From assembly GCA_944392235.1 (NCBI GenBank), contig CALXVZ010000005.1:3903-67902 (forward strand): 64,000 nucleotides of DNA. Direction: 5' to 3'. The position numbers and the translations under genes were made by a program. The notes beneath the pieces were generated by a model. It saw only the letters and a list, made by a program, of their open reading frames with translations, was not told the origin of the DNA and made no database searches. Positions 42,910 to 64,000 of this stretch are shown here, one piece after another. Origin of the DNA: an uncultured Alphaproteobacteria bacterium. Lineage in GTDB: Bacteria > Pseudomonadota > Alphaproteobacteria > RF32 > CAG-239. Numbering within the stretch: the stretch's first letter is position 1; every line of letters begins with the position of its first letter.

Positions 42910-42912
42910 ACT

Positions 42913-44226: not shown

Positions 44227-44238
44227 AAGACGGAGGAT

Positions 44239-47200
44239 ATGCAAATGAAAAAAGGACTAAGATTATTACAGAGTATAGTATTAGGTGTATTAATCCTAGG
44301 CTGTAATGCATATAATGCAAAAGCATTTTTTCTAATTCCGCCAATGCCATGGGATGTGGAAATTGACATACCTGGCAATGCAAATAAGATAGTATCTAAT
44401 GCACAAGCGATTTACAGACAGCTTCAGACAATACAATCAGAGTTGAATACAAATAAACTTGAAGCGATAAAAAAAGGAATTGATTTTGCTTTAGAATTTA
44501 CTGAAAATCCAGAAGGAGAGACCAAAAAGGCTCCAGGTAAAAGCAATCCTGAGTTAAAAAATAATGAAACTTTAAAAATTACAAAGAACGGAATGGATGA
44601 AAAAGAAAACTTTGATGCATTCCACAAGTTATTTGTTGTTTATCCATTAGAAAAGCAATATAATTCGAAGCATTATAATGCCGTAAAAATGGCCTTTAAG
44701 CGTAAAGGAATTGAATATAAGCAAGATATGGTTATGGAAACATACATGACCGGAAGAATGACGGAAGATTTTTTAAGAGTAGTAGAGACAACTATAGAGA
44801 GATTAGATCGTTGTCAAAAAGGAGAAGAAAAAAATAATTGTAAATTTTTTGGAATGCAGATGTCGGATGTAAATCCAAATCAATCGGAAGAAGATCTGGA
44901 TCCTGAAAATCCGGACAATGGCGGACAGTATGCTGAGATGATGAATGCTTATATAGTAAGCGTTGTCTATGATAAATTAATGAGAATAGTAGAAGACTTA
45001 GTAGCAACAGAAACGATATTTACATCAGCAAGACAATTAGATATAATACAGCAAATAGAACAAGATAAACAAAGCTCAGCAGAAGAATATATAAATAGAG
45101 AATATCAATTTGCCTATAGTGAAAATCAAAGTTATACATATGCAAAAGGAACTCCAATAGTAGCAAAAGATTACCAACGTAGTGAAGTTTGTCAAAATGG
45201 TGGAGGAGAAAATTGTCCAGAATTAAACAAAGAGCAAGCTAAATTAAAAAATGTAGATGATTCAGCAATATTAGGGGCTCTACAACCAATAGAAGCTAAG
45301 ATAGATGAAGCTTTGCAACTACATAATTTAAAGGCAAGTTTAGGTGAATATAAATCACAGTATAGAAAGTATTTAAAAGCAAAAGAAATACATGAGAGAC
45401 TTCTAAAAGTTTTGGAAGAAAGTGATAAGAGCGTTGTTAATTTTATGAACAAATATGGTGACGGAAAAGGTGTATCAATATGGTATGGAGGAAGTAAACC
45501 AAACAAAGTAAACAACCATGAAGCAAGAGATGGTGTATCAAAAGAAGTAATAGAAGAATATCAGAAATACACAACAGATACTCTAATAGGCACATCGGGA
45601 GAATGTAGTGGATATTATGAAACATGTCCGGATGGATATAAGGCAGATACAGAAAATCCATGTAAAGAAAATCCCAATATGTTTCCATGCATAGTAGACA
45701 CAGTGACAAGCGATATGGATTCAGAAACACCGGCAATATCTTATAATCAAACAGAAATTCCTCAAGATTTTACAAATGAAGCAGAGAGGAACAAGCGTGA
45801 ATATAATGATACGGATTTCTTAAAAGATGGAACGGATGCCGACAGAATTGAAATAGAAAATAGAATAAAAGCTGAAAAAAGTTGGAGAATTGGTGCTAAT
45901 AAAATAATGGAATTAACAAATAACGGTGTATTACAATTCTCACCATGGAATGATCAGATGGATTTTCAGGCAGAATATATGCGTAATAAATACCGTAATA
46001 TCAGAATGATAATCCAAGCCATAGATAAAGGAATGATGTCATACCGCATTGCAACAGGTTTGGCAGAAGATGAAAAAAATGTTGGACCGATTGAGTTTGT
46101 ATTGCCAGCAGTAACATCATGCAAGTTGACAACAGATGCAACAGAGGACGCTTACAGAGATTTCTGTTCTGGATATTCTGGAAAAAATTGCACAGAATCT
46201 AGCGGTAAAAAGACTTGCATAGGAACAAAGATTGTTACATGTAATTCTGCAGGAGAGCCTATAACAGATACAGTTATATGTAGGGTAGAAGGAGATAATA
46301 GCACCGGTTATATAAACGGAGCAATAATATCTACAAAATGTCCAGGATACTATAAAACAAAAAAATACGACCAAAGAATAATTTCAAAAGATGGAGGTTG
46401 TCGCTTCACAAAAGCAAAAAGTGTCTATACGGTGTTGGAAACAAATGACAATTGTCCTGGAGAGTGGGATTTCAGGGTAAGCAGCCTTGTAAAGAAATAT
46501 ATGCCGGCAGTATTAGGAAGTTGGAAGAGTGATGGAAGCTATGAACAAATTTGCAAAATGAATGATTTAGACGTTCAAACAAAGCACTTGCGCAAACAAA
46601 CTTATGAAGCAGGACGAAGAGTAGCTTCCGATGATTTCCAAAACGTATTGGAAGTAAGAAAAAATGTTGAAGAGAGTTTAATAAAGCTTATTATGAATTA
46701 TGATAATGAGCAGAAGCAATTAAAAAGGGAATTAGAAAATATAATAAAAACAAGAAGTGATTTTGCAAACAAATTAAGTGATGCAACAGATGAAAAGAAT
46801 GAAGCAGTAGAATTACGTCAAGAAGCTTTAAGACGAGTATCCTCAATTACGACACAGATTGCTGAATTAGAGGCAAGAGTAAAAGCTTTGCAAGATCAAC
46901 TCAATACAACAGAAGATGAAAATACAAAAATATTATTAGAAAAAGAGATAAATTCGATTGAAAAAGGTATGAGCACTTTCACATCAGAACAGAAAAACGA
47001 AATAAAAAATCCAACAAGAGCTCAAGAAATAGGTCAAATTCCGGCATTAAAAGAGGAAAGAAATTATATTTGTTATAAAGCAAATACGAACAAGTATGAG
47101 GAATGCAAAGGATTTAATGAAAAGGAAATAACAGAAGATTTATATGCAAATAATGAAGATAATAAATTCTTCCCAATATCTGAACTAGAGGCGAATATTG

Positions 47201-49635
47201 CTAAAGCTCAGACAGAGATAGATTCTGCAGAAACAATGATGGAAACTTTGCAAGAAGATATAAACACTAAAAAAGAAGAAATAGAAAAATCGGCAGAAAC
47301 ATTTGCTAAAAAATATTTAGAAGAAGCAGAAAAAGGATATGTAGAAATAGAAGAGGCAAATAAAAAATTTGAAAATAAGCTAGAAGCTAAAGAAGACGGA
47401 TCAGAACCAGATAGAATGGAAAGTATCAAGAGAGGATATTATCCTAGTTCGACAGGATTACCGATTACAGAAGAAGATAAAAAATATGAATATGATAAAG
47501 ATAATTTAAGCTGGACAATGGCCAGAGTAATGTTCGGTGGAGGAACAGAAAATTCAGATTCATCAGTCCAGAATGAACTGCCAAAAATCGTAAAAGATAC
47601 GATGGATGATAGATGGTTTACTGGAGAGCAATGGAAATCAGATGCGGCAGCAAAATTAAAAAATGTTGGTGTAGTTAAAAATTTTGTTATAGCGGAGGGT
47701 GCTTTAGAAAAGTATGGCATATCAGATGCCACCTATACTCCTGAAACACTAGCACTTGCTCTTAAAGATGAAAGTGTAGAGCAAGCGGCCAATTTATTAG
47801 CTGGTTACATCAAAAACGCAGATGAGATTGTGGATGACGAAATAAAAGCAGCTACAGAAGAAGTCGATTATTTTAGAAAAGAATTAAAAATAACAGGAGA
47901 AGATGGGGAAGAACCAGATGCTTCAATTTATGAAAGAAATAACTATGCGAATGACAATACAGTATGCGAAGAGGATATGTCAGAACTTCCAGAAATTACC
48001 CAGAAACATTGCCAACTAATTAAAAAATTAAGTGAAGCAAAAAATAAGGAAGAATTGGAAGGTGCCGAAATTAAATTAACAGAAAGTTTTGGTATTCCGA
48101 ATCCTATTAAAACAGATGATAATTACTTTGTAGGCTTACCTGCAAGAGGAACCTATGATAATCCAATCCCAAGTTATGGCCTAGAAGTAGGTGAAATGCC
48201 TCAAATGGTAGAAGATTTAATTGATCGTAATGATGAAAATGCCGGAAGAGACTTTATGGCTCCGCATAAACCAATGGTAAATTTACCGCCACTAAGAGAG
48301 ATATTCTATTTCAGTGCCCAAGATTATGTAGATGTTCCTAAATATATAGATGCGGATAAACTAGAAAAACCATCAAAATCAACCTTGGTAGATAAAAAAT
48401 TCAAGGGAACATATAATGAGGTTGAATATTTGCCCGAAATATGGAGATACTTATTGGCAACACCAAACTTAAGAGGCGATGAATTGTATCAGCATACATT
48501 TGTTGAGAGAGCATATGATAATAGTAAATTAAAAGATATGCTTGAGAGAGGGTTAAGTAGCGATAATTATACAACAATTATATCACGAGCAGGAGTATAT
48601 CCATGTAAACTTGGCGGTGTGATTATTGATATAAAAGGCAAAAATAATGATGTCAACGCTATAAAATTTAGGAAAAGAACTGCTGGTGTTGAAAGCGGAT
48701 ATGATGTTCCAACTTGTCAAGATATTGAATTATATGGAACTGGAGTTCGTCACTTACTTGCCGACCATGATAGTATTAACGATTCTAAATCAAAAGCAAT
48801 AGAGAAAAATATTTCTACAATGAATGATGGAATGTTTAGTGAAGTAAGTGAATTAGCATTATTCCTAAACAAATCATTCCAATATAGAGGTGTATTAGGA
48901 AATATGTATAAATATCTGCTAAAGAAAGAAAATGCAGAAAATGACATTAAGCGTCAAAAAATAGATTTAGCGACATATAAGCGGAATTTAATTGGTTCAT
49001 TCTTAGATTCAGTAAATGCCGAGCATAATGCAGAAAAAACAATGAATGAAAACGAAAAAGATGTAGAAGATGCATTAAAAAGTTTATGCACACAACTTCA
49101 TAATTTTGGCGAGTCAGTAGATGGAGAAAGCTGTGAAGATAAAAATGATACAGGTTGCCCGAATAAAATTGCTGAAAGTTGTGCTATATATATTATGAAA
49201 AATGGCGGATTAGCAAGTAGTGCAGAGGATGACAATTACAACGTTGATTGTAAAAAACAAAAGAGAACATCTTACTATGATGAAATTTTCTGTAAACTTG
49301 ATGAGTTGAAAGATAACACAATTGAAGAAGCAAAATTCGGTTATAGAGAAGGCGAGGAAGAAATAAAAGGATTTGAGTCTGTAAAAAATATGACAGGTAA
49401 TGATAAAGCTCAAGAGCGTATTCAAAGAATAAATAATTATTTGGAAGCTTTTGATGCAGATAAAGAAGAGGTTTCGGTAATAACACCGGATAGCACTGCA
49501 GACAAAGTCAAAGAAGCTGTAAAAGAGGCTGAAGCAAATCAAAAAGCATCACGAGCCGCCGAAGAAGAAGGTATCAAATCCATGGACAATCAAAGTCGAG
49601 CAACGGCATACGCTCCTGTGATGAAGGAGAAATAA
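44239..49635 (+). CDS. Giant secreted Cys-rich and coiled-coil protein (array member 5, 1798 aa); candidate adhesin
   Basis: Signal peptide ending AKA, then ...EIDIPGNA...AIYRQLQTIQ; Cys clusters; long heptad stretch; no polytopic TM domain. Confidence 0.6.
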   Translation: MQMKKGLRLLQSIVLGVLILGCNAYNAKAFFLIPPMPWDVEIDIPGNANKIVSNAQAIYRQLQTIQSELNTNKLEAIKKGIDFALEFTENPEGETKKAPGKSNPELKNNETLKITKNGMDEKENFDAFHKLFVVYPLEKQYNSKHYNAVKMAFKRKGIEYKQDMVMETYMTGRMTEDFLRVVETTIERLDRCQKGEEKNNCKFFGMQMSDVNPNQSEEDLDPENPDNGGQYAEMMNAYIVSVVYDKLMRIVEDLVATETIFTSARQLDIIQQIEQDKQSSAEEYINREYQFAYSENQSYTYAKGTPIVAKDYQRSEVCQNGGGENCPELNKEQAKLKNVDDSAILGALQPIEAKIDEALQLHNLKASLGEYKSQYRKYLKAKEIHERLLKVLEESDKSVVNFMNKYGDGKGVSIWYGGSKPNKVNNHEARDGVSKEVIEEYQKYTTDTLIGTSGECSGYYETCPDGYKADTENPCKENPNMFPCIVDTVTSDMDSETPAISYNQTEIPQDFTNEAERNKREYNDTDFLKDGTDADRIEIENRIKAEKSWRIGANKIMELTNNGVLQFSPWNDQMDFQAEYMRNKYRNIRMIIQAIDKGMMSYRIATGLAEDEKNVGPIEFVLPAVTSCKLTTDATEDAYRDFCSGYSGKNCTESSGKKTCIGTKIVTCNSAGEPITDTVICRVEGDNSTGYINGAIISTKCPGYYKTKKYDQRIISKDGGCRFTKAKSVYTVLETNDNCPGEWDFRVSSLVKKYMPAVLGSWKSDGSYEQICKMNDLDVQTKHLRKQTYEAGRRVASDDFQNVLEVRKNVEESLIKLIMNYDNEQKQLKRELENIIKTRSDFANKLSDATDEKNEAVELRQEALRRVSSITTQIAELEARVKALQDQLNTTEDENTKILLEKEINSIEKGMSTFTSEQKNEIKNPTRAQEIGQIPALKEERNYICYKANTNKYEECKGFNEKEITEDLYANNEDNKFFPISELEANIAKAQTEIDSAETMMETLQEDINTKKEEIEKSAETFAKKYLEEAEKGYVEIEEANKKFENKLEAKEDGSEPDRMESIKRGYYPSSTGLPITEEDKKYEYDKDNLSWTMARVMFGGGTENSDSSVQNELPKIVKDTMDDRWFTGEQWKSDAAAKLKNVGVVKNFVIAEGALEKYGISDATYTPETLALALKDESVEQAANLLAGYIKNADEIVDDEIKAATEEVDYFRKELKITGEDGEEPDASIYERNNYANDNTVCEEDMSELPEITQKHCQLIKKLSEAKNKEELEGAEIKLTESFGIPNPIKTDDNYFVGLPARGTYDNPIPSYGLEVGEMPQMVEDLIDRNDENAGRDFMAPHKPMVNLPPLREIFYFSAQDYVDVPKYIDADKLEKPSKSTLVDKKFKGTYNEVEYLPEIWRYLLATPNLRGDELYQHTFVERAYDNSKLKDMLERGLSSDNYTTIISRAGVYPCKLGGVIIDIKGKNNDVNAIKFRKRTAGVESGYDVPTCQDIELYGTGVRHLLADHDSINDSKSKAIEKNISTMNDGMFSEVSELALFLNKSFQYRGVLGNMYKYLLKKENAENDIKRQKIDLATYKRNLIGSFLDSVNAEHNAEKTMNENEKDVEDALKSLCTQLHNFGESVDGESCEDKNDTGCPNKIAESCAIYIMKNGGLASSAEDDNYNVDCKKQKRTSYYDEIFCKLDELKDNTIEEAKFGYREGEEEIKGFESVKNMTGNDKAQERIQRINNYLEAFDADKEEVSVITPDSTADKVKEAVKEAEANQKASRAAEEEGIKSMDNQSRATAYAPVMKEK

Positions 49636-51518: not shown

Positions 51519-53486
51519 ATGAAGAGAACATTAAAAATATTATCAATAGCAATATTAGCACTTGGATTTTGTATAATAGAAGCAAGGGCTCAGGTAACGA
51601 AAAATAGTTTAGATCAAAATGCTGACCAAAGTCAGGGAAATTACGCTGCAACAAATTTAAATTATTTAGGGGGCGTTGGGTCTCTTGGAATGATGCAAAG
51701 TGCATGGAAAGATCCTTTGCAACATATGGGAGAAGGTCAAAGTCGACCAGGTTATACAAAATATTATTGGACACCGGAATTGGTATTGCCAGTACGTGTA
51801 AGAGAGGGAATGTATACATTGATAAATTTTCCAAATTGGGAAGTGATAGAGAATGTATATATTGGTGACGGTCAATCATTTAATGCAGAAATACAAGGTC
51901 CATCAAGTTTAATGGTGTATCCGGATTCATCACAATTTGTGGGAGTAGATACAAATATGATTGTATTTGGTCGTTCTGGCAATAAATATGTTTTCTATGT
52001 TCAAAGTGAAACAGTTAATACCGATAGAATAACAAATGCAATTATAGATATTGAAGTAGTAAAGAGAAAAGGTGGTATAAATGGCTCTGGTTCTATAGGA
52101 AATAGCGGAAATGGACATGTAAATGCAAGTACGTATGAAACAGGCGGAACAAGCGTGGATTCAACATTTACAAGGGATTTGCAAAGAGAGGATTGGATTG
52201 AAAAAATCCCCGTTGATCCAACTAAATTTAGGTTTGATATTGAAGTATATGTTCCAAATCCAGATGACATTGTAATAGCACCGGAGAGAGTATGGAGAGA
52301 TAATATATTTACTTATATAGACTTAGGAGATAAAGCCCTAACAGCAGTTCAAAGACCGATAGTAACTTTGATAGTAGAACGTTCAGAAACTCCTGTCGGT
52401 TTTAGAACAGCCGGCCCAAACAATAGATTGATTATTGTTGAGGGAATGGGAGACATGGTTTTGCGTAGCGGCAAAAGAATTGTATGTTTAAAATTAAGAA
52501 GAGCAGATTCGGATGGTCTTGAAAATGCAGTCTATGCAAAAACAAATGAATGGGATTTGCAGGCTCAAGATAGAAATCTTTCAAAAGAAAATTATGAAGA
52601 TGTATACAATGCTCCTAAAGACGATTCTGAAGGAACAGCAGAAAAAAAATCATTCTTTGAAAGCAATTCTTTCTTTAATTCGAAAGGAAGTGATAACTTC
52701 CAGCAAAGAGAACAGAACTCAGATATGAGTTATGAACAGATGATAAGTGATGGAAAGAATACTGCAACAGCTCCACAAACAGAAAAGTCACAGCAAATTG
52801 AAAATAAACAGCAAATTGAAGCAAAAAATAAGATAAAGGAGGCTAATGAAACTGCTTTAGAAATCTTAGAGAGTTTACCGAAGGCGAAGACTATTGTGGC
52901 ACCGGAAACACCTAAAATTCCTCAACAAGAAAAGCCACAAATCGAAGGACAAATTGATATAAAATCGGATAGAGCAGAATTGATTAGCCCTATATATAAT
53001 AATCAACAAGAAAAAATAAGTGTAAATAATCAACAAGAAAAAAGTTCACAAAATTCATCGTCTCCAAATATCACCACTAATACAATAGGAAATTCAAATA
53101 ATAATTCTAATCCTATATTAATTAGTCCAAAAGATGGAAATATAAATAGAAACAAAGCTATTTCATCAGAAACAGAAGCATTGCTACAAGAATTTAAGGA
53201 TGGTAGAGCTTTTTCCCAAACAAAAGGAGATAGTATATCAATAGAATTAGGAACAGATAAAGACATAAATAATCTTGAAAAATTATGGAATGGCATATCA
53301 AAAAATTATTCAGCAACACTAGGAAAATATCAGCCCTTTTATTCAGTAGATACACCTGCTGATGGTCAGGGAAAAGAAGTATTTCATCTTCGTGTTGGCC
53401 CTATACAATCATTAGAAGAAGGTGATAATATATGCAGTCAATTAGGTCGTAATGGTATATTTTGTAGTGTGGTTAGGATACAATGA
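51519..53486 (+). CDS. virB9: VirB9/TrbG-family protein with C-terminal SPOR domain
   Basis: Signal peptide; V.VREGMYTLI.F...E.I..V.IGD, DTNMIV, FDIE, VWRDNIFTYI; C-terminal IELG...LW......FHLRVGPI.S......C.QL...G..C.VV SPOR pattern. Confidence 0.8.
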   Translation: MKRTLKILSIAILALGFCIIEARAQVTKNSLDQNADQSQGNYAATNLNYLGGVGSLGMMQSAWKDPLQHMGEGQSRPGYTKYYWTPELVLPVRVREGMYTLINFPNWEVIENVYIGDGQSFNAEIQGPSSLMVYPDSSQFVGVDTNMIVFGRSGNKYVFYVQSETVNTDRITNAIIDIEVVKRKGGINGSGSIGNSGNGHVNASTYETGGTSVDSTFTRDLQREDWIEKIPVDPTKFRFDIEVYVPNPDDIVIAPERVWRDNIFTYIDLGDKALTAVQRPIVTLIVERSETPVGFRTAGPNNRLIIVEGMGDMVLRSGKRIVCLKLRRADSDGLENAVYAKTNEWDLQAQDRNLSKENYEDVYNAPKDDSEGTAEKKSFFESNSFFNSKGSDNFQQREQNSDMSYEQMISDGKNTATAPQTEKSQQIENKQQIEAKNKIKEANETALEILESLPKAKTIVAPETPKIPQQEKPQIEGQIDIKSDRAELISPIYNNQQEKISVNNQQEKSSQNSSSPNITTNTIGNSNNNSNPILISPKDGNINRNKAISSETEALLQEFKDGRAFSQTKGDSISIELGTDKDINNLEKLWNGISKNYSATLGKYQPFYSVDTPADGQGKEVFHLRVGPIQSLEEGDNICSQLGRNGIFCSVVRIQ

Positions 53487-56400
53487 ACGAAAATACGCGT
53501 TTTGAGGAATATGAAAAGAAAACAAGAAAAATAATTCTAATAATAGGAATTATTCTATTTTTCTTATTTTTGATTGGATTGCAATTAAATTCTTCAGACG
53601 GAGAAATATATAATCCAGAAGAAAATACACCAGATTTTGTAGAAAATCAAAATATACTACCAGAAATTAATTCAGAAACCCCCCCGTTATTTATAGATAC
53701 GGAAAATTCAGAAATTGGAAATAAAAATAAGCCGATAAAAATAACTCCATCTCAAATAAATATGAATAAATTTATATTAGGGGTAGATACGCAGAATCAA
53801 AGCATTTTGACAATAGGAACAGATGGAAGCGAGAGTATTCATATTGAAAGAGTAGAATTAGTTGAAGAAATGGAAGATGGATTTGAGCTTCGTGATAAAT
53901 GTAGAAACAGAGATTTACGCGGAGACGAGACTTGTAATATTTTAATAAATTGGAATCCTCATTTACCGGGAAATGTTCAAAACAACATTAAGATAACATG
54001 GTATGAAACAAGATTAGATAAATCGAGTGTAAAATCCGAAGAAATCAGTGTAAAAGGAAGTGCATTATATCCAGAAGCAAACTATCAAATATGTGAGGAT
54101 GGCACAAATTGCTCAGTTGGAACAATGAAAGAGAGTGCACATCGTCTAGCAATAGGTCCAAATGGAGAAATAATAGGTTATATAGATGAAGCTGGTAATG
54201 TGCACGATAAAGACGGAAAAATAATAGGACGTGTAAATGAAGATGGATTAATTGTAGATGCCAATGGTAATATCATTGGAGTAGCCCAAAATATGAAATT
54301 AGCCTATGATAAAGATGGTAATATAATGGGGTATGTAAAAACAGATGGATCCGTAGTAGATTTGCAAGGGGAGGTAATAGGCAGAGCCCTTGCTGATGGA
54401 ACAATTGTGAACAGTAAAGGAGAAATAATAGGAAAAGCCGTAGAAGCAGGATTTGTATATGATAAAAATGGAAAAATAATAGGAAGAGTATTACCTGATG
54501 GAACAGTCGTTGATATAAATGATTCGCAAAAAATCATAGGTCGCCTAAACGAAAATGGAGACGTTGTTGATGCAGAAGGTAATATAATTGGTAAGGTAAC
54601 ATCATCAGGAAACATTGTTGTAGATGAAAATGGCAATTTACTTGGAGTAGTAATGCCAGATAATAGTGTTGTAGATAAAGATGGCAATGTAATAGGATAT
54701 GTTGATGAAGAAGGAAATGTATATAAAGTTGCAAGTGAAAAAATCGGAAGTAATGGAGAAAGTAGAAAGATTGTATATGATAAAGAGGGGAAAGCAATAG
54801 GTTATATTGATGAGAATGGTAAGATAGTCAAATTTACAAAAGGAAAGAATGCCCCCCAAATAATAGGAAAGGTCGGAGCAAGCCACAGACTAGCTTTAGA
54901 TAAAGATGGCAATGTAATAGGATATATTGATAAAGATGGAACAGTAAAAGACTTTAATGGAAATATTATCGGAAAAGCAGATAAAGATGGAAACATCAGA
55001 GATAAAGATGGTAATATAATAGGAAAAGCCGGAGCGTATAGTAAATTAGCATTAGATAAAGATGGTAAAGTTATTGGTTATATCGATGAGCAAGGACGTG
55101 TCTTTGATCATAATGGTAAGCAAATAGGAACAGTTGATGAAAATGGAAATATAATAGCTCTAGATGATTCTGAAAATAGCGGGGATAAAAAAAGAGTAGC
55201 TATGGGTGTAGATGGTAAACCCATAGGATACATAGATGATGATGGCAATGTTATAGATTATGAAGGAAACATAATTGGAAAGCTAAACGAAAAAGGCGAA
55301 ATAATTGATCAGAATGGTAATGTTATCGGAAAAGCGGGGGCATACGAAACCGTAGCTTATGATAAAAATGGTAAAATCATTGGTTTTGTAGATGATAAAG
55401 GCGGAGTAATAGGAAAAGATGGTAAACTCATAGGTTACATTGATGATAAAGGTCAAATAATAGGACTAAGTGAAGATATATTAGGGCGAGCAGGAAGATT
55501 TGCAGAAATTGTCTATGATAAAAATAATAAATTTATTGGATACATAGAAAAAGACGGAACAGCAAAAGGCTGTGGTGGAATTATTATTGGTAAAAAAGAT
55601 AAAGAAGGAAATGTGAGAAATAATGAAGGGGAGATAATAGGCAAAGTTGGTGAGGTAAAAGAGCTGGCTTTTAACGAAAAAGGTTTATTGATAGGTTACG
55701 TTGATGAAAAGAAAAGAATAATTGATTGCAGTAACAAAATTGCAGGAATTGTAGATAATAAAGGTAATGTAATCGCAAGTAGCGGAGAAAAATTAGGAAC
55801 AGCAGGAAATTATAAAAGATTAGCCTATGATAAAGATGGAAAAGTCATAGGATACATAACTTCAGACGGAACCGTAAAAGATTTTAAAGGAAATTTAATC
55901 GGAAAGATGCTCGAAGATGGAACCGTTTTAGATAAGAATGGTAATATAATCGGACAAGCCGGTGAATATGAGCAAATGGCTGTAGATAAAGACGGTAATA
56001 TAATAGGATATGTTGACGAAGAAGGACGTGTCGTTGATGAAAATGGTAAGTTAATAGGTTTCATTGATGAAGATGGAAATGTCATAAAAGCTGGGGATAA
56101 AATAATAGGTAGAACATGTGCAGAAAGGAAAATTGTCGAGAATAAAAAAGGTGAAATTATTGGATATTTGGATAAAAACGACATCGTAAAAAATTTTAGC
56201 GATAGAATAATAGGACATAATAAAAAAGGCGATGTTTTAGATAATAAAGGACTACTAATAGGAAGTGTGAAAGAAAAGAAGAATATCGCACTACTAAAAA
56301 ATGGGAAAGTAATTGGATACATTGATGAAGAAAACAATGTTCGAGGAGATAATGCAGAAATAATAGGCATTATAAACGAAAAAGGAGAGGTTCTTTCTAT

Positions 56401-59400
56401 TAAAACAAATATAATAGGGAAATTATCTTCTGACAATATTACAGTATACGACTTAGGTGAAAATACTATAGGCACAATGAAAAATAATAGAATAGCCTAT
56501 AATAAAGAAGGAAAAATAATAGGATATATTAATAAAGAAGGTGCGCTATTAGCTTCAGGAGAGATAATATGCACAGCTTGTAAGACTGCATTAATTGGAT
56601 ATAATAAAAATAGTCAAGAGATTGGATATGTTGATGAAAATGGCAATATCTTAAATAGAAGTGAAATAAAAGGAAAAATAGATGAAAAAGGAAATATAAA
56701 AGATAAAGAAGATAAAATTTTAGGCAAGGCAGAAGAAAAGAAGAATTTAGGATATAGCCTTGAAGGGAACATAATTGGATATGTGTATAAAAATAATATA
56801 GTGAAAGATTTCGATGGAAAAATAATAGGTTATGTAGATGAATACGGTAACATATTGAATAATACGGAAGAACAAATAGGAAGTGTCGGTCAATATGGAA
56901 AGCTAGCTTTAGACAAGGATGGAAATGTTATCGGCTATGTCGATAAAGATGGGAATGTATATGATTTTAATGGAAAGTTAATAGGAAAGGCGACAGAAGA
57001 TGGTCGTATATTAGATGAATATGGTCGAGAAATTGGTGAAGTAGGAGATTCGAACGCTTTAGCAGTTAATAAAGACGGTAAGGTAATAGGATACATTGGT
57101 AAAGATGGTCGAATATACAAAGAAAATGGAGAGATTGCAGGCTTTTTAGACGATGAAGGTAATGTAATAGGTGTAACAGATGAAATTATAGGAAAAGTAG
57201 GTCAAGTAAAAAAATTAGCCCTAGATAAAGAAGGTAATATAATAGGTTATATAGATGAAGATGGAACAGTAAAAGATTTTGATGGCAATTTAATAGGCTA
57301 TTTAAATGAAGACGGCACCATAAATGATATAAATGGCAATATAATAGGGAAAGCAGGAGAACTGACAAAAGTTGTTGTCGATGAAAATGGTAATACTGTA
57401 GGCTATACTGACGAACAAGGGCGCGTTATTGGAAAAGATGGAGAAGTAATAGGCTTTGTCGGAGAGGATGGCATAGCATACAAGAGCACAGGTGAGGTGA
57501 TAGGTCGACTTGCAGAACAGGGAGATAGCACATTAAGTGTAGTAGGAAGACAAGGTATAATCGATGAAAATAATAATACAATTGGCTACGTTGATGAAAA
57601 TGGAATGGCTCGAGATTTGAATGGTAACATAATAGGAAGAGTGCAATCAGATGGTAGCGTTATAGATGAAACAGGAAAGATTATTGGAAAGGTTGGTGAA
57701 TTTGTTGACTTTACAATGGATGAAAATGGTAAAGTAGTAGGAAAAGTAGGAGATTACGCAAATCTTGCCGTAGATGAAATAGGCAACGTAATAGGTTATG
57801 TTGGAAAGGATGGAAAAGTATATAATGCAGAAGGGATAGTTATAGGCTACATTGATGAGAATGGTAATGTCATCAGCTCAAGAGGTATAAAAATAGGAGC
57901 TGTTATAAATAAAGATATGATAGCACTATCACCAAATGGTTATAGTCTTGGCACAATAAATAACAGAGGCGAAATAATCAATAATAAAGGTCAAGTAATA
58001 GGAAAGACCTTACCTAATAGTCTAATAAGATCAGTTGAGGGAAATAGAATAATAGGAAAGACGGTTATTGGAGGATTAGCAATAGGTTGGGGCTGTCAAC
58101 AATACGGATATATAGATAAAGATGGAAGAGTCAAAAAAGAAGGAAAAGATATTGGATATAGAATGCTTTTTGATGGCAGTATAGTTGATAAAGATGGAGA
58201 ATATAAAGGAGACGTTCTAAAGACGGGTATAGTTAGAGATAGTAAATGTAACATAATAGGAAGAGCTGGAAATGATGGATTTGTTCGAACAGATAATGGA
58301 CAATACATTGGATGTGTAAATCCAGATGGTGGAGTATTAGACCAAAATGGACAATTAATAGGTAAAGTCCATACACCAACGTATGCATTATATTATAATG
58401 GTGAGATGATGGGGAGTGTAAGCTCAAATGGTTTAATAAAATCAGGCCAAGAGACACTTGGGTGTGCAAATTTAGAAGGAGAAGTTCTTAACAAAGATGG
58501 CTTTATTATTGGCCACATAATGGATAAGAAACAAGCATTTGACACAGAGGGGAATTTTATTAATAAGCTATCAATAAACAATTACGATAACACAGAAGTA
58601 ATTCCAAATACAAAAATTTTATTTAATAAATTGCTGGTCAATTCAAAACAAGAAGTAAAAGGCATAATTTTACCGGAAAAAAATATCATAGTCGATTCTA
58701 ATGGAGAAGTTATAGGTCATCTATTTGCAGATGGATATGTGTATAATCAACAAGGTATAGCAGAAGATAAATTTATTTATGAGGGTAATTCATTTTATAA
58801 TAAAAAGGCCGGACGTATTTTGCCTAAAGGAAATGTTGTAGATTTCAATGGTAATTATTTGGGATTTGTAAGCGATAACGGTAAAGTCATTGATTATTTA
58901 GGCACAGAATACGGACATATAGATGTAAAAGGAAGAATGTTTGATTCTCAGGGAACATACAAGGGAGGCATTGTAAAAACAGGAGTTGGAATAGGATATG
59001 ATGGGTCATATCTTGGATATGTTAGCAAAAGTGGAAAGGTTATAGATGTAGATGGAAATACAAGTGGGGTAGTTAGTTCAGAAGGTCATATATTAGATAA
59101 AAACAAACAGATTATAGGTGAAGTAATTTCAGAGGATTTTGTCATTGATATACAAGGAAATATACAAGGATATGTGAATGCATTAGGCGATATAATAGAT
59201 AAAGAAAATAAGATAGTAACAACAGTATTACCAGGGGGAGCATCTAATAAAAATTATAGTCTAATAAAGAAAGGTATTATACTTAATTATTCAGGAAAAG
59301 TAATTGGTCAAGTTGTCTCGGATGGAAATGTCATATCAACAAATAATGAGAAAATAGGAAAGATATTAGTGACAGGACGAGCAGTTAACAATAAAGGAAT

Positions 59401-59758
59401 TTTATTAGGAGAAATAGTGGACAGCGATATAGTAATCAATGACGAAGATAAAGTTATAGGTATAATAAATGCAGAAGGAGAAGTAATAGACGCTGATAAA
59501 AAAATCATAGGAAAAATGATATCATCAAATTTAGTTGTAGATAACAATGGAAAAATAATGGGACATGGATATAAGATTGGTGCTAATATATTAGGGAATG
59601 ATGGTAAATTTTTAGGACGATTATCAGCAAATGGAAGCGTTTTAAATTTAACAAATGGACGAATAGGATATCTAAAGAGTAATGGCTCTTTTGTAAATAT
59701 TCAAAATAAGGTAGCAGGGTATGTGCTTGAAGAAGCAGCACAAAATCGGAGGAATTAA
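53483..59758 (+). CDS. 2091-aa membrane-anchored protein: N-terminal TM, Ig-like domain, about 100 17-aa beta-hairpin-type repeats
   Basis: ORF track; TM at about aa 16-35; C..L.G..TCNI.I.W.P..PG Ig-like pattern; repeat xVxDxxGxIIGxVxxDG. Confidence 0.85.
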   Translation: MNENTRFEEYEKKTRKIILIIGIILFFLFLIGLQLNSSDGEIYNPEENTPDFVENQNILPEINSETPPLFIDTENSEIGNKNKPIKITPSQINMNKFILGVDTQNQSILTIGTDGSESIHIERVELVEEMEDGFELRDKCRNRDLRGDETCNILINWNPHLPGNVQNNIKITWYETRLDKSSVKSEEISVKGSALYPEANYQICEDGTNCSVGTMKESAHRLAIGPNGEIIGYIDEAGNVHDKDGKIIGRVNEDGLIVDANGNIIGVAQNMKLAYDKDGNIMGYVKTDGSVVDLQGEVIGRALADGTIVNSKGEIIGKAVEAGFVYDKNGKIIGRVLPDGTVVDINDSQKIIGRLNENGDVVDAEGNIIGKVTSSGNIVVDENGNLLGVVMPDNSVVDKDGNVIGYVDEEGNVYKVASEKIGSNGESRKIVYDKEGKAIGYIDENGKIVKFTKGKNAPQIIGKVGASHRLALDKDGNVIGYIDKDGTVKDFNGNIIGKADKDGNIRDKDGNIIGKAGAYSKLALDKDGKVIGYIDEQGRVFDHNGKQIGTVDENGNIIALDDSENSGDKKRVAMGVDGKPIGYIDDDGNVIDYEGNIIGKLNEKGEIIDQNGNVIGKAGAYETVAYDKNGKIIGFVDDKGGVIGKDGKLIGYIDDKGQIIGLSEDILGRAGRFAEIVYDKNNKFIGYIEKDGTAKGCGGIIIGKKDKEGNVRNNEGEIIGKVGEVKELAFNEKGLLIGYVDEKKRIIDCSNKIAGIVDNKGNVIASSGEKLGTAGNYKRLAYDKDGKVIGYITSDGTVKDFKGNLIGKMLEDGTVLDKNGNIIGQAGEYEQMAVDKDGNIIGYVDEEGRVVDENGKLIGFIDEDGNVIKAGDKIIGRTCAERKIVENKKGEIIGYLDKNDIVKNFSDRIIGHNKKGDVLDNKGLLIGSVKEKKNIALLKNGKVIGYIDEENNVRGDNAEIIGIINEKGEVLSIKTNIIGKLSSDNITVYDLGENTIGTMKNNRIAYNKEGKIIGYINKEGALLASGEIICTACKTALIGYNKNSQEIGYVDENGNILNRSEIKGKIDEKGNIKDKEDKILGKAEEKKNLGYSLEGNIIGYVYKNNIVKDFDGKIIGYVDEYGNILNNTEEQIGSVGQYGKLALDKDGNVIGYVDKDGNVYDFNGKLIGKATEDGRILDEYGREIGEVGDSNALAVNKDGKVIGYIGKDGRIYKENGEIAGFLDDEGNVIGVTDEIIGKVGQVKKLALDKEGNIIGYIDEDGTVKDFDGNLIGYLNEDGTINDINGNIIGKAGELTKVVVDENGNTVGYTDEQGRVIGKDGEVIGFVGEDGIAYKSTGEVIGRLAEQGDSTLSVVGRQGIIDENNNTIGYVDENGMARDLNGNIIGRVQSDGSVIDETGKIIGKVGEFVDFTMDENGKVVGKVGDYANLAVDEIGNVIGYVGKDGKVYNAEGIVIGYIDENGNVISSRGIKIGAVINKDMIALSPNGYSLGTINNRGEIINNKGQVIGKTLPNSLIRSVEGNRIIGKTVIGGLAIGWGCQQYGYIDKDGRVKKEGKDIGYRMLFDGSIVDKDGEYKGDVLKTGIVRDSKCNIIGRAGNDGFVRTDNGQYIGCVNPDGGVLDQNGQLIGKVHTPTYALYYNGEMMGSVSSNGLIKSGQETLGCANLEGEVLNKDGFIIGHIMDKKQAFDTEGNFINKLSINNYDNTEVIPNTKILFNKLLVNSKQEVKGIILPEKNIIVDSNGEVIGHLFADGYVYNQQGIAEDKFIYEGNSFYNKKAGRILPKGNVVDFNGNYLGFVSDNGKVIDYLGTEYGHIDVKGRMFDSQGTYKGGIVKTGVGIGYDGSYLGYVSKSGKVIDVDGNTSGVVSSEGHILDKNKQIIGEVISEDFVIDIQGNIQGYVNALGDIIDKENKIVTTVLPGGASNKNYSLIKKGIILNYSGKVIGQVVSDGNVISTNNEKIGKILVTGRAVNNKGILLGEIVDSDIVINDEDKVIGIINAEGEVIDADKKIIGKMISSNLVVDNNGKIMGHGYKIGANILGNDGKFLGRLSANGSVLNLTNGRIGYLKSNGSFVNIQNKVAGYVLEEAAQNRRN
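54140..59740 (+). repeat. Coding tandem repeat, about 51 nt / 17 aa period (xVxDxxGxIIGxVxxDG; DUF3659-like by recollection)
   Basis: e.g. LAIGPNGEIIGYIDEAG NVHDKDGKIIGRVNEDG LIVDANGNIIGVAQNMK LAYDKDGNIMGYVKTDG; degenerate at the DNA level. Confidence 0.85.
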
Positions 59759-59759
59759 T

Positions 59760-62700
59760 TTGCAAAGAGTAAGATTAAAAATAAAAAATATAACTAAACT
59801 AGTATTGCTTTTAATAATAATAAGCCTAAAAGCGATAGCCGCCGATATTAGTGCTCTTAATTTTAATGGAGATTTAATAGGAAAAGTAATACCGGATGGA
59901 ACAGTCGTAAACGAAAATAATGAAGTTATTGGCTATATGACTGCAGATGGTCTGATTTATGATAATCAGAAAGAATTAATAGGCGGTGTAATTCCGCAAG
60001 GGATGGCTATATCAAATAACAATAAAATACTTGGAAAAATTAATAATGATGGTTCTGTGACATCGATAAATAATGCATTAGTCGGCAAGGTGTTACCCAA
60101 TGGATTAGTTGTAAATGATAGTTATGATGTTCTAGGAGCTGTAATACCAACAGGTCTTGTCTATAATGATTTAGGTTTAGTAGTAGGAAGAGTATCAGGA
60201 GATGGTAAATATTATAATTTAACAGGCGAAAATAATGGCTTTGTAACAGTAAACGGAGATGTTTATGGATATCAAGGTGTAGATGGACAGATAGCATTAA
60301 TAGGAAAATTAATTTCATCAAAGATAGTTCTTTCATCAACAGGAAAATTTATAGGAAGTTTAGCACCTGATGGAAAGGTTATTAATAATCAAAAGAAAAT
60401 GCTAGGTAAAATACATGCAAATGGGTATGTATTTAATGAAGAAGGTAATGCTATAGGAAAAGTAGTAAAAGAAGGATATGCATTCAATAATAATGGAGCT
60501 TATATTGGTATTGTTAGCTATAATGGAGATATCATAAATAAAGGGATAATAATAGCCAAAGCTATTTCTGGAAATAGAGTTATAAATAAGGAAGGTCAGC
60601 GCATTGGTTTTACACTAAGTTCAATGACGACTGCAAATAATTTAAAAGGGGAATATTTAGGAAGACTATCTGCAAAAGGAGAGATTTTAAGAAAAAGAAA
60701 TGTAGTAGGAAAGATTGGAGCGAATGGTAATATTGTAAATGAAAAAGGAGAGTTAATAGGAACTATAAATTATGCAGGACCTATATTTGACTACCTTGGA
60801 AATTTAAAAGCAAATGCGTCAATAAATGGAAAGGTATATTCCTTAGAAGGTATAGAAGTAGGACTAATAAGAGAAAAAGAAGGATTTGATAATGCAGGAA
60901 AAGTTATCGGCTCTTTATTAGATGAAAGTGTATGTTTCAATAACACAAATGAATTTATAGGTATAAGTGGAATAGGAACAAAGCTTGAAAAAAATGGAAA
61001 AATATATAAAATATCACCTAATGGGTATGTTTTTGATGAAAAAGGCACAATTGGCGGTGGAACAGTAAAATTTGGAGAAATATACACAGCAGAAGGCACG
61101 CCACTAACTTACATATCTGATAATGGAAATACAGAAACATCTAGTTTAAATGAAATAGCTAAAATAACAAATGGCGGACTATATATAGATAAAAATAATA
61201 AGTTATTAGGAAAGCAAATACAAGGCAAATATGTTACAAATTTTGCAGGCGAAACGCAAGGATATACAGGAAAATCGAATTTTGTAGTAAATGATGAAAA
61301 CAAAGTATATGGCAAAATACTACCTAATAATGATGTTGTAGGAATATCAGAACGTTTCTCACAAAATTATGGTAAAGCAGATAACAAAAATTTAAGTATA
61401 AGCATAAATGGAGACTATCTAGGTTCAAGCACTCTAGAAGGAAAGATTGTTAATGGGAATGAAATCGTAGGTAAAATAAGCTCTAACGGATATGTTGTAG
61501 ATAATACAGGAGCCCTATACGGAAAAACAGTAAACTATGGTAGTATAATTTCACCAAAATGCGAAGTTTTAGGAGTTGTATCTGATAATGGGGAAGGAAG
61601 GACTTCGCAGGGAGCATATCTGGGAATGATATTGGCAAATAAACAAGTTCTTTCAGACACAGAAACTTTAGTAGGGTATGTGGTAGAGCCACAGGTAATA
61701 AACGGAAAAGAAGGAAAAGTTATTGGAATAAGTAGTCCTATAGGTAATACTCTAACGTATAATAATGAAAATTTAGGATGTATAGATTGGCAGGGTAAAG
61801 TAAGAAACTCACAAGGAGAAATCGTAGGACAAACAATACCATCCATGTCAATAATGGGCTATGATAATAAAATTGTTGGATACACAACTTTTGGTGGAAA
61901 AATTATAGACAATTCTGGATTAGAAATTGGTTATATGGATATCAATGGAGAAATAAAGTCAAAAGACGGAAAAAATATTGGGGTTCCTTTTCTATATACA
62001 GTAGCCTTTGATTTTAATAATACATATCTAGGGCGTATAAACACAGAGGGACAAGTAGTATCGGACCAAGGAGTAATACTCGGAAATACACAGTATAATG
62101 GATTAGTTAAAAGTTCGAACGGAAATATAGGATATGCTTTATATGATTTATATGTATATGATAATGAAGGAAAAACAATAGGATATATATCAAAAAATGG
62201 AAAGGTTTATAGTATTTTAGGAGAAATACAAGGAACAATCTATCAGGGTTTTGTTTTAGATAAGAAACAAAACCTCATAGGAAGAGGATTACGCGATTAT
62301 AATATAAGAGATAAACAATATAATATAATCGGAGAATTGAAATTAGATGGTAGAGTAATAAATATCCAAAATATAGAAGTAGGTAAATTAGGTGAAGATG
62401 GTCAAATATTAAATGCAAGAGGAGAAGTGATAGCAATAGCAGAAAAGTTGCAATACTATCAAAAACCCAAAATTGTAGCACCAAAATCAGAAGTAGAGAT
62501 ACAAGAAAAAAAGAAAGATAATATAACAGATACAGAGATAAGAACTGAAGAAGCTAAAGAAACTAAAGAAACAGAAGAAAACAATACACTTGCTGAAAAA
62601 AAGGAAGAAGTAATAACACCTGCAGAACAAATAAGAGATAGTGAAAAAGTAATAGGAATAGCTGTAACACCGGGTGGACGCTATATTGGAGATATATATA

Positions 62701-64000
62701 GCGACAATAGTGTAATAGATGAAGAAGGAAAAATTATAGGAAAAAAGAATGAAAAAGGAGAGATTATAGATAACAAAGGACAAAATATAGGGATAATTGA
62801 GCAGAAAGAATATCAAACAACCAAAGATATTAATCCTAATAGACGAGCACAAATTTCAGCTGGAACAACAATTGATCCATATAATATAGGTAATTCAATC
62901 ACAAATGTAGGTCCTGGAGGAGGTATAGGTCCAGGAGGAAGATATAATCCACGTCGAGCAGCAATTTTATCGCAATTACAAGAAGAGCGCCGGAGGACAA
63001 TGGTCGCAGCAAAAATAAATCCAGGTTATGATGCGGCATCATACACAGGATGGCAAGACAATTGGGGAATTGGGCGAACCATATCAACATTACGAGTAAA
63101 CATGGATAATATGATAACAGGAGATAAACCAATACCTGCAGTTTTAGCAAGGTCATTAATATCATTAGGAGAAGCCCCTGTTACAGCAATAGTTGAGCGG
63201 AATATCTATGGGGATTCTGGACGTAATGTTATTATACCTGCAGGAAGTAGGATAATCGGGGGGTTACAAGCAGCTGAAGGCCGATCCAGATTTGATGGAA
63301 CGAGTGGTGGTGTAAAAATGGATATAGCCTGGGAAAGGATAATCCGCCCTGATGGAATAGCCTTTTTGTTATCGCCAGGAAGAACAAGAACTGGTGATGC
63401 ACAAGGACGAGGAGGCGGAGCTCTAGGATATGTGGATGAACAGTTGGTGAAAAAATATACACTTCCAATAGTTGGCACAATGGTTGCATCCGCAGTAACA
63501 TATATGATGGCTGCAGATGAAGATAGCACGGGAGAGGTGGAAACATCAAAGCAACAAGCAGCATCAGATGCAAGACAACAATTCATGGAGAAAATGGATC
63601 AAATATTACAAGAAATTATAGATAGTAAGTCGCAAATTGAACCTGTAACATTTATTCCTGCGGGCACAAGGGTAATTATATATCCTATGCAAGATTTATG
63701 GCTGAGAAGTACAAAAGAAATAGAAAAAGGAATAAGCGCTACCGGTATAGATGGAGGAAGAGGTGGCCTAGTTAATGAGACATATTATGGATCTGGCGGT
63801 GGAACAACTACTATCGACGGTAACAATAGTCAAGGCAGTCAAAAGGTTATACTTGGCAACCAAGGGCAAAACACAAATTCAAATGAAGGTGGTGGAACCC
63901 CATTGATAAATGAAGGACCTTCAAATAATCAACCTCAAAAGCCAAATAAAAATATAGGAGCAATTCCTCCTCCAACAGCTGATGGAACGGAGATACAAGA
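59760..64000 (+). CDS. virB10: Giant VirB10/TrbI-family protein (at least 1413 aa, 3' truncated) with about 50 N-terminal 17-aa repeats
   Basis: Manual translation: GGAGG RBS, TTG 59760, no stop to window end. Core at about 63100-63704: MITGDKPIPAVL...VTAIVERNIYG..GRNVIIPAGSRIIG, IAWERIIRPDG, DAQGRGG..GYVD, IEPVTFIPAGTRVIIYPMQDL. Confidence 0.9.
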   Translation, partial: MQRVRLKIKNITKLVLLLIIISLKAIAADISALNFNGDLIGKVIPDGTVVNENNEVIGYMTADGLIYDNQKELIGGVIPQGMAISNNNKILGKINNDGSVTSINNALVGKVLPNGLVVNDSYDVLGAVIPTGLVYNDLGLVVGRVSGDGKYYNLTGENNGFVTVNGDVYGYQGVDGQIALIGKLISSKIVLSSTGKFIGSLAPDGKVINNQKKMLGKIHANGYVFNEEGNAIGKVVKEGYAFNNNGAYIGIVSYNGDIINKGIIIAKAISGNRVINKEGQRIGFTLSSMTTANNLKGEYLGRLSAKGEILRKRNVVGKIGANGNIVNEKGELIGTINYAGPIFDYLGNLKANASINGKVYSLEGIEVGLIREKEGFDNAGKVIGSLLDESVCFNNTNEFIGISGIGTKLEKNGKIYKISPNGYVFDEKGTIGGGTVKFGEIYTAEGTPLTYISDNGNTETSSLNEIAKITNGGLYIDKNNKLLGKQIQGKYVTNFAGETQGYTGKSNFVVNDENKVYGKILPNNDVVGISERFSQNYGKADNKNLSISINGDYLGSSTLEGKIVNGNEIVGKISSNGYVVDNTGALYGKTVNYGSIISPKCEVLGVVSDNGEGRTSQGAYLGMILANKQVLSDTETLVGYVVEPQVINGKEGKVIGISSPIGNTLTYNNENLGCIDWQGKVRNSQGEIVGQTIPSMSIMGYDNKIVGYTTFGGKIIDNSGLEIGYMDINGEIKSKDGKNIGVPFLYTVAFDFNNTYLGRINTEGQVVSDQGVILGNTQYNGLVKSSNGNIGYALYDLYVYDNEGKTIGYISKNGKVYSILGEIQGTIYQGFVLDKKQNLIGRGLRDYNIRDKQYNIIGELKLDGRVINIQNIEVGKLGEDGQILNARGEVIAIAEKLQYYQKPKIVAPKSEVEIQEKKKDNITDTEIRTEEAKETKETEENNTLAEKKEEVITPAEQIRDSEKVIGIAVTPGGRYIGDIYSDNSVIDEEGKIIGKKNEKGEIIDNKGQNIGIIEQKEYQTTKDINPNRRAQISAGTTIDPYNIGNSITNVGPGGGIGPGGRYNPRRAAILSQLQEERRRTMVAAKINPGYDAASYTGWQDNWGIGRTISTLRVNMDNMITGDKPIPAVLARSLISLGEAPVTAIVERNIYGDSGRNVIIPAGSRIIGGLQAAEGRSRFDGTSGGVKMDIAWERIIRPDGIAFLLSPGRTRTGDAQGRGGGALGYVDEQLVKKYTLPIVGTMVASAVTYMMAADEDSTGEVETSKQQAASDARQQFMEKMDQILQEIIDSKSQIEPVTFIPAGTRVIIYPMQDLWLRSTKEIEKGISATGIDGGRGGLVNETYYGSGGGTTTIDGNNSQGSQKVILGNQGQNTNSNEGGGTPLINEGPSNNQPQKPNKNIGAIPPPTADGTEIQ
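59840..62450 (+). repeat. 17-aa coding repeats within virB10
   Basis: SALNFNGDLIGKVIPDG TVVNENNEVIGYMTADG LIYDNQKELIGGVIPQG MAISNNNKILGKINNDG..., the same unit as the upstream giant protein but more divergent. Confidence 0.8.

Follow-up and report, generated by a model that had tools for sequence, protein, structure and literature searches.

A giant VirB10 that appears to be divided between two adjoining genes in gut Alphaproteobacteria

Two giant genes separated by a single nucleotide

Near the right-hand end of a 64,000-nucleotide stretch of DNA from an uncultured alphaproteobacterium (hereafter the window; contig positions 3903-67902), a type IV secretion system (T4SS) operon carries two giant genes that lie one nucleotide apart on the forward strand. 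The upstream gene (53483..59758, +) codes for a protein of 2091 amino acids (aa), which we call the anchor, and the downstream gene codes for a protein with the C-terminal domain of VirB10. These genes, as argued below, are probably the halves of one ancestral giant VirB10. The anchor gene ends with a TAA stop codon (59756-59758), a single T follows at 59759, and a TTG start codon opens the virB10 gene at 59760, in the +1 frame relative to its neighbor. A listing of open reading frames (ORFs) that admits open ends gives the 3′-open frame as 59721-63998. When the whole contig is read, coding on the + strand continues for 46 nucleotides past the window and closes with a stop codon at window-equivalent positions 64047-64049, the last base of which lies 49 nucleotides beyond the window end. 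Counted from the TTG at 59760, this ORF comprises 1429 aa, and the combined size of both proteins is 2091 + 1429 = 3520 aa. These results agree with an earlier inspection of the DNA letters (the sequence-only reading), which had noticed a hidden frame beginning one nucleotide after the stop of the 2091-aa gene, in a different frame and with no stop in the window. That reading had also put the combined length above 3500 aa and had credited the hidden gene with a GGAGG ribosome-binding site of its own, which we find one base away from its earlier placement, an immaterial shift.

This Shine-Dalgarno (SD) sequence (GGAGG; 59748..59752, +) sits 7 nucleotides upstream of the TTG codon and lies within the last codons of the anchor gene, where CGG AGG codes for the two arginines of the C-terminal residues NRRN. 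We examined the same junction in a collection formed from the best 80 of 187 relatives, in which it is readable at 76 loci. An SD-like cGGAGGa lies inside the last codons of the upstream gene at 75 of the 76. Start codons of the virB10 gene are TTG (56 loci), GTG (14) or ATG (6), such that 92% (70/76) are not ATG. From the upstream stop to the virB10 start the gap is 0-4 nucleotides in 75 of the 76 loci, most commonly 1, with a full range of 0-7. Among these junctions, each of the three possible relative frames is represented, and so is each of the three stop codons. A conserved frameshift or read-through device is excluded because the relative frames and the stop codons vary, and both programmed frameshifting and stop read-through were rejected on finding that the relative frames of the two genes differ among relatives. 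The arrangement of the junction points to termination-coupled reinitiation.

The TTG codon begins a Sec-type signal peptide (aa 1-27; 59760..59840, +) with a predicted cleavage site at AIA↓AD, assigned by reading the sequence and from the pattern among orthologues. The N-terminus of the protein reads MQRVRLKIKNITK-LVLLLIIISL-KAIA↓ADISALNF, wherein the first residue is M from TTG. By sequence criteria, a Sec (signal peptidase I) signal combines a basic n-region with a hydrophobic h-region some 7-15 residues in length and has small side chains at positions -3 and -1. VirB10 shows this layout, with a basic segment (RVRLKIKNITK), a hydrophobic segment (LVLLLIIISL) and a small-x-small site (K-A-I-A↓A-D). 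A pattern search finds the corresponding arrangement in 70 of 78 orthologues. In each, the pre-sequence varies freely but includes a basic stretch, 10-26 uncharged hydrophobic residues and a small residue at both -3 and -1, after which comes a near-invariant mature start, (A/Q)(D/E)I(S/T)A(I/L)(N/D)FNGDLIGKVIPDG. The other eight carry the variant AAA↓EEISAIDF. Because the pre-sequence varies freely while the residues after the site are almost invariant, we infer that the VirB10 N-terminus behaves as a cleaved pre-sequence with the classical signature. The semi-tryptic peptide ADISALNFNGDLIGK would then be expected from the N-terminus of mature VirB10. The hydrophobic run is 10 residues long, and the best N-terminal 19-aa window has a mean hydropathy of 2.31 versus approximately 3.0-3.1 in true anchors. 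The resemblance to a cleavable Sec signal that was noted from the letters is thus supported by the orthologue pattern, and the hydrophobic run, much weaker than in true anchors, speaks against the uncleaved transmembrane anchor that would have refuted it.

The anchor protein consists of a 16-aa cytoplasmic tail, one transmembrane segment, an acidic/proline linker, an immunoglobulin-like (Ig-like) domain and approximately 110 beta-hairpins. It matches the Bflower_2 family (1.1e-126), and its N-terminal module is homologous to that of the single-chain giant VirB10 proteins described below. The transmembrane segment (aa 17-35, IILIIGIILFFLFLIGLQL; 53531..53587, +) has a mean Kyte-Doolittle hydropathy of 3.07 and is the sole 19-aa window of the protein with a value of at least 1.6. 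The N-terminus is predicted to face the cytoplasm because a basic stretch, KKTRK, stands before this segment. Both the tail motif E-x-Y-x-KKT-x-R and the transmembrane segment are kept in split and fused forms alike. The predicted periplasmic Ig-like domain (ASH/HYDIN-type, about 115 aa; aa ~83-198; 53729..54076, +) was delimited by an alignment of 19 anchors and by weak Pfam matches in orthologues (ASH and HYDIN_VesB_CFA65-like_Ig). The copy in the window has no Pfam match, and a profile of the N-terminal module (A2) also matches many multi-Ig proteins.

Beyond these parts lies a regular acidic expansion of hairpins (aa ~400-1450; 54680..57832, +) built as a 52-aa super-repeat of three hairpins, with autocorrelation peaks at 17 and 52 aa. 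The protein ends with a conserved C-terminal module (aa 1501-2091; 57983..59755, +) that is positionally fixed across the whole split clade (occupancy 1.00). Its last 300 aa align over 302 columns in 77 sequences with 66% column identity. An AlphaFold2 (AF2) model of aa 1792-2091 is an array of short strands with a mean confidence (pLDDT) of 92.2 and a predicted template modeling score (pTM) of 0.86. The only part of the module predicted to be disordered is formed by the final seven residues, AAQNRRN, a tail that is largely a by-product of the overlapping SD sequence. Its invariant NRRN is a case of nucleotide constraint seen as protein conservation, wherein the Arg-Arg codons and the SD sequence are the same nucleotides.

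Mature VirB10 starts with an array of about 51 beta-hairpin (beta-flower) units of 17-aa period (aa 28-893; 59841..62438, +). Three further hairpins at aa 963-1013 bring the total to approximately 54, and Bflower_2 matches the protein in nine stretches (4.7e-51). The repeats of the two proteins score 171.8 and 415.3 bits against a gathering threshold of 38, carry the [DNEQ]xxG motif at the hairpin tip and have a 17-aa hairpin period, which places them among the beta-flowers (clan CL0395). An AF2 model of aa 28-330 contains 34 short strands (pLDDT 93.4, pTM 0.87). The high pTM values suggest that the modeled arrays are rigid bodies rather than beads on a string. A Foldseek search with the junction modules found no similar solved structure (none with a template modeling score above 0.2), in line with a fold that has been described from predicted structures alone (PMC10584680).

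An acidic, lysine-rich linker of low conservation (aa 894-962; 62439..62645, +) separates the array from a segment (62646..63113, +) that holds the three additional hairpins, a spacer with the motif GPGGGxGPGxRYxP and a basic, helix-like stretch. The motif is invariant across split and fused forms. The TrbI/VirB10 barrel domain follows (aa 1119-1315; 63114..63704, +), with a PF03743 match of 95.3 bits (5.5e-27; cut-off 35). The NCBIfam models for ComB10 and VirB10 match across this domain at scores below their strict equivalog cut-offs, and its matches in the PDB are ComB10 (2bhv, 3.5e-17), TrwE (7o3j), Xanthomonas VirB10 and CagY, with entry 6gyb also among them. In VirB10/TrbI proteins, a helix-loop-helix 'antenna' is inserted in the barrel and forms the lining of the outer-membrane pore. 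In the sequence alignment, aa ~1223-1295 align without a deletion to the helix-loop-helix segment of ComB10, including the hydrophobic stretch LPIVGTMVASAVTYMMAA. The identification as a giant VirB10 that was made from the letters is therefore upheld by three sets of matches (Pfam, PDB and NCBIfam). Its outline of about 50 17-aa repeats, a charged linker and a TrbI core, the last now located by the Pfam check that it had proposed, is present in full.

The protein finishes with a low-complexity tail rich in G, N, Q and S (63705..64000, +, and then beyond the window), which in the whole-contig translation ends in ELELSF. In this clade, split and fused giant VirB10s alike finish with L-x-F or LF behind such a tail, and the terminal residue is F in 73 of 80 and Y in 5 of 80. 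This aromatic end is missing from both canonical VirB10s that served as outgroup. It resembles the C-terminal signature of outer-membrane proteins and may be such a signature, or a docking motif.

Conservation of the pair and its single-chain relatives

The anchor/VirB10 pair is present at all 76 loci with a readable junction, which come from gut and rumen Alphaproteobacteria. Within the genus of the window, an open VirB10 frame of 1384-1504 aa occurs in 23 of 24 other species, and in 15 of 15 fully fetched loci a gene of 1990-2516 aa with a transmembrane anchor lies directly upstream. Split pairs sum to 2505-3627 aa. Chance or an assembly frameshift was considered as the source of the split in the window and was rejected, given the same arrangement in all 15 same-genus loci and in the 76 loci from public genomes. 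Moreover, no 31-mer is repeated anywhere in the 10.5 kb that hold both genes (53483-64000), and so the collapse of repeats by the assembler is unlikely at this locus.

Conservation is unevenly distributed along the two proteins. In a full-length alignment, mature VirB10 is colinear between the genus of the window and a distant group of split forms (occupancy ~1.0). Its first 100 aa are the best conserved, with 58% identity to the distant group versus 51-53% for the barrel core, and its first 300 aa show 64% column identity over 324 alignment columns and 78 sequences. The anchor is colinear with the distant group at aa 1-400 and 1500-2091. Across the clade, the last 600 aa of the anchor and all of VirB10 are colinear, with the strongest conservation at the termini on either side of the break. 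All length variation of the pair is concentrated in the acidic hairpin expansion of the anchor, approximately 1050 aa that are colinear within the genus and have an occupancy of only 0.01-0.55 in the distant group. No co-variation in length is seen between the two proteins (rho of -0.18 and -0.25 within the two groups), and in this genome the repeat regions differ about two-fold, with ~1870 aa in the anchor and ~930 aa in VirB10.

We also identified five single-chain relatives of 1273-2350 aa, each of which unites an anchor-type N-terminal module (tail, transmembrane segment and Ig-like domain), a beta-flower array and a TrbI core in one ORF. The shortest is encoded by a genome from another order (G027), which is the only representative of that order, such that no additional fused form came from there. 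It is a 1273-aa ORF (L025:2264-6085) that adjoins virB9 and has the TrbI core at its C-terminus. The non-repeat N-terminus of this protein is 29% identical to that of the anchor over 177 aa (2e-23), and a homologous-protein search with the region returned no matches. The other four came from a search with profile A2 against 1.84 billion representative proteins. The hits were crowded by unrelated multi-Ig proteins, and only matches that span the whole profile from residue 1 were used. In these proteins, P0094 (2201 aa), P0123 (1930 aa), P0125 (2350 aa) and P0130 (2266 aa), the module occupies residues 1-200 and is followed by a long Bflower array, with TrbI close to the C-terminal end. Two separate assemblies each include a contig with P0125 in identical form. 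The gene order at these four loci is virB8, a small ORF, virB8, virB9, the fused gene and virB11, with one virB8 only at the P0123 locus, and the window shares this order. The slot between virB9 and virB11 is thus filled by one fused gene there and by two genes in the window. No internal signal peptide is present in the fused forms.

A maximum-likelihood tree of 41 TrbI cores gathers the 34 sampled split forms into one clade (support 99/98). Searching for close relatives of canonical size yielded mostly truncated gene calls of giant proteins, and the outgroup was therefore formed by P0204 and P0205, which are true short VirB10s with 26-30% identity. When the tree is rooted on these two canonical proteins, the five fused forms fall outside the split clade. 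A single fission would be the simplest history, given that the canonical protein is itself one chain and that no fused form falls within the split clade. Close relatives of the window are all split and the fused forms belong to sister lineages, which answers the question raised from the letters of whether homologues are fused or split; the single fused ORF in close relatives that would have told against a split was not encountered. We attempted to map the break point by window-wise BLAST and with hidden Markov models of the two junction modules, and found that only the non-repeat ends are colinear and that the junction models match every repeat equally.

Two probable halves of one VirB10 and competing explanations

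Taken together, these observations are consistent with the hypothesis that the two genes (53483-59758 and 59760-64049) encode the halves of one ancestral giant VirB10 that are exported separately and dock on one another, a reading to which, as a whole, we assign a probability of about 0.72. The evolutionary part, wherein a giant VirB10 underwent fission into two separately exported halves, is very probable judging from the sequence comparisons, and the docking of the halves is an even bet. The ancestor would have been a single chain composed of a cytoplasmic tail, a transmembrane segment, an Ig-like domain, a long beta-flower array and a TrbI barrel, an architecture still found in the sister lineages. 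In the common ancestor of a large gut and rumen clade of Alphaproteobacteria, this gene would have broken inside an irregular part of the repeat array, and the rear piece would have acquired an SD site, a start codon that is mostly TTG, and a Sec signal peptide.

In the resulting system, the front half is expected to remain in the inner membrane and to keep its tail on the cytoplasmic side, like the N-terminus of canonical VirB10. The rear half would be exported by Sec and cut at AIA↓AD, after which its barrel would be built, together with VirB9 and VirB7, into the outer-membrane core. A non-covalent, end-to-end contact between the conserved modules at the C-terminus of the anchor and at the N-terminus of the rear half would then rebuild the bridge between the membranes. 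We favor end-to-end contact over side-by-side contact because the C-terminus of the anchor and the mature N-terminus of VirB10 are the best conserved. Termination and reinitiation across the 1-nucleotide gap would hold the two halves near a 1:1 ratio. With approximately 165 hairpins in every pair, and as many pairs as the core has copies of VirB10, the product could be a large and rather rigid periplasmic scaffold, similar in this respect to the CagY repeats. More tentatively, we envision a bridge of two polypeptides held by a non-covalent beta-flower joint, in which the ~165 hairpins of each pair build a periplasmic cage on the megadalton scale. The fold would thereby gain its first cellular role. 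The sequence-only reading had proposed that the upstream protein may supply the missing half of VirB10 and its membrane anchor, and this part of it is strengthened by the fused orthologues, the shared operon slot and the single, derived split clade.

Several points weigh against this hypothesis. Cleavage and docking are both inferred from sequence, and the models do not demand a partner for either junction module, as both fold confidently alone (pLDDT 92-93). By hydropathy alone, the value of 2.31 at the VirB10 N-terminus would allow a weak uncleaved anchor. The rooting depends on two very long outgroup branches, and the root is the weakest point of the argument. The shortest fused form, that of G027, has near-identical repeats that share 55-mers, and its ORF may have arisen when a short-read assembly collapsed a longer gene or a split pair. 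The screen for repeated k-mers covered the window and this form, and P0094, P0123, P0125 and P0130 do not obviously depend on the problem. Finally, the fission point cannot be mapped on the fused proteins, in which the repeats have turned over.

We weighed four other explanations for the same data. Perhaps the halves no longer touch, such that the anchor is an independent inner-membrane scaffold or an adhesin-like periplasmic protein, VirB10 is confined to the outer membrane, and no VirB10-type bridge joins the membranes. The confident folding of both junction modules in isolation would suit such independence, as would the independent variation of the two lengths. Nevertheless, the genes are never found apart, at the 76 loci or at the 15 from the genus, and they are translationally coupled. 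The facing termini are the best conserved of the repeat regions, with the first 100 aa of VirB10 exceeding even the barrel, and fused orthologues place all the parts in one functional unit. We therefore consider independent halves unlikely. Alternatively, as had been suggested from the letters, the two arrays might pair to form an unusually long two-chain stalk, in which they would run side by side across an unusually wide envelope. The same 17-aa hairpin builds both chains, and the high pTM of the AF2 models makes rigid arrays plausible. However, the array lengths differ about two-fold with no positive correlation across genomes, and ~1050 aa of the anchor are absent from the distant group, in which VirB10 is still colinear. 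Conservation sits at the facing termini and is not spread along the arrays, and variation is confined to the middle of the anchor. Side-by-side pairing is thus quite improbable, and this part of the sequence-only reading is not sustained. We also considered a 'split flower', in which hairpins from both chains complete one domain in trans, and found no support for it, as both modules fold alone and only the seven-residue tail is disordered.

The remaining two explanations concern how the rear half is made and held. If VirB10 kept an uncleaved signal anchor as its own inner-membrane attachment, the upstream protein would be only an accessory paralogue. The best 19-aa window (2.31) does exceed the usual threshold of 1.6, and the uncharged run reaches 20-26 residues in some relatives, but in the window the uncharged core is only 10 residues long with lysines on both sides. 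In addition, 70 of the 78 orthologues keep the small-x-small site and what follows it but differ freely in the pre-sequence, and the VirB10 N-terminus lacks the tail motif and transmembrane sequence kept in the canonical-type anchors of the fused forms. This arrangement is very improbable. Almost negligible, in our judgment, is the chance that one chain is still made by recoding, via a +1 frameshift here or stop read-through in same-frame relatives, with the split serving as a regulatory device. A gap of 1 nucleotide might seem to invite this explanation, as might those relatives in which both ORFs share a frame with a single stop between them. With all three relative frames, gaps of 0-7 nucleotides and three stop codons represented, however, no conserved recoding signal is possible. 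Independent initiation is favored by the conserved and optimally spaced SD sequence, by the start codon and by the signal peptide, whose cleavage site is conserved, and a fused product would hold an internal hydrophobic signal sequence.

Operon context, known systems and implications

All genes of the operon lie on the + strand and encode VirB2-type pilins, VirB4, five ORFs without a Pfam match, two VirB8 paralogues, VirB9, the 2091-aa anchor and VirB10. The virB9 gene (51519-53486; CagX 5.4e-13) is directly upstream of the anchor gene, and virB11 (T2SSE, 93.7 bits) begins 24 nucleotides after the virB10 stop, just beyond the window. VirB9 has 655 aa, a low-complexity linker and a weak C-terminal match to the peptidoglycan-binding SPOR domain (E 0.0016, under the Pfam cut-off), and a weak SPOR match is likewise present in the VirB9 encoded beside the fused form P0130. 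The five successive ORFs without a significant Pfam match (38862-49635; 354, 730, 238, 437 and 1798 aa) lie between virB4 and virB8, and no VirB6-type polytopic protein was recognized in the operon by Pfam.

The genome (1.29 Mb, 33% G+C, 77% complete) has a single TrbI gene. A coupling protein of the VirD4/TraG type (746-aa open frame) is encoded on another contig (G000:C3:51681-53270), apart from the virB operon. The two relaxase families searched, Relaxase (PF03432) and TrwC (PF08751), have no match in this 77%-complete genome, which suggests that the T4SS is non-conjugative. Given a VirD4 homologue without a match to either of these families, contact with other cells is a more probable use of the machine than conjugation. 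Records of the relatives describe metagenome-assembled genomes of uncultured Alphaproteobacteria from the guts of humans, mice, ruminants and other animals.

Among bacterial proteins that extend from the inner to the outer membrane, VirB10 is the textbook case. It is usually viewed as one unbroken chain across both membranes that passes on conformational signals from the inner-membrane ATPases and so reports their energy state to the gate of the outer-membrane pore. The canonical VirB10/TrbI proteins (Agrobacterium tumefaciens VirB10, R388 TrwE, pKM101 TraF, Xanthomonas VirB10 and Helicobacter pylori ComB10) share with the pair described here the C-terminal TrbI barrel, the gene slot between virB9 and virB11, and a common logic of short cytoplasmic tail, single transmembrane segment, periplasmic connector and outer-membrane barrel. 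Canonical proteins are single chains of about 350-480 aa with a Pro-rich connector. In the present system, that connector is replaced by an Ig-like domain, approximately 165 hairpins, an acidic linker and a Gly/Pro motif, with about 2800 aa of beta-hairpins in addition to the Ig-like domain. Moreover, the canonical tail and transmembrane segment are on the same chain as the barrel, whereas here the half with the barrel has a Sec signal and the tail and transmembrane segment belong to the upstream protein. The fused P0094, P0123, P0125, P0130 and G027 proteins share the N-terminal module, the repeats, the GPGGG motif, the barrel and the C-terminal LF with the split form.

Other giant VirB10 proteins are known. 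CagY of H. pylori (~1900 aa) also has repeat regions ahead of its barrel, which gives a weak sequence match to the barrel described here (8cb2, 9vgf). In CagY, the repeats form part of a large periplasmic assembly, the Cag periplasmic ring. CagY is a single polypeptide that carries a membrane anchor of its own. Its repeats bear no relation to the beta-flower and change in number by recombination between strains. In contrast, the system in the window comprises two polypeptides, and its repeats have diverged at the DNA level (no shared 31-mer in 10.5 kb) and are positionally fixed across species. DotG of the Legionella type IVB Dot/Icm system is a single chain with a VirB10-like C-terminal domain after a long region of pentapeptide-type repeats, which are likewise unrelated to the beta-flower, and no sequence relation to it was detected here.

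The described beta-flower families (PF21785, PF21784 and DUF3659; clan CL0395) are small single domains of ~96 aa that are known from predicted structures and have no assigned function (Durairaj et al. 2023, PMC10584680). Their hairpins close into shallow barrels of 8-12 strands with 4-6-fold symmetry, and the [DNEQ]xxG tip motif was described for them in that paper. By comparison, about 165 hairpins are present here, distributed over two chains and joined to a T4SS subunit. Our literature searches brought up no account of a VirB10 that is split or that carries beta-flower repeats, and secretion systems are not mentioned in a paper on related reduced-genome gut Alphaproteobacteria (order Rs-D84). 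The arrangement is thus a strongly conserved VirB10 variant that is apparently undescribed.

A two-chain VirB10 that is stably inherited asks whether covalent continuity between the membranes is needed at all. The split form extends across a wide clade of Alphaproteobacteria that are common in human, rodent and ruminant guts, and it exists alongside single-chain forms in sister lineages. The beta-flower fold, to which no function has so far been assigned, gets a defined place in a secretion machine. For these small-genome gut bacteria, the machine would be relevant to how such little-known organisms live.

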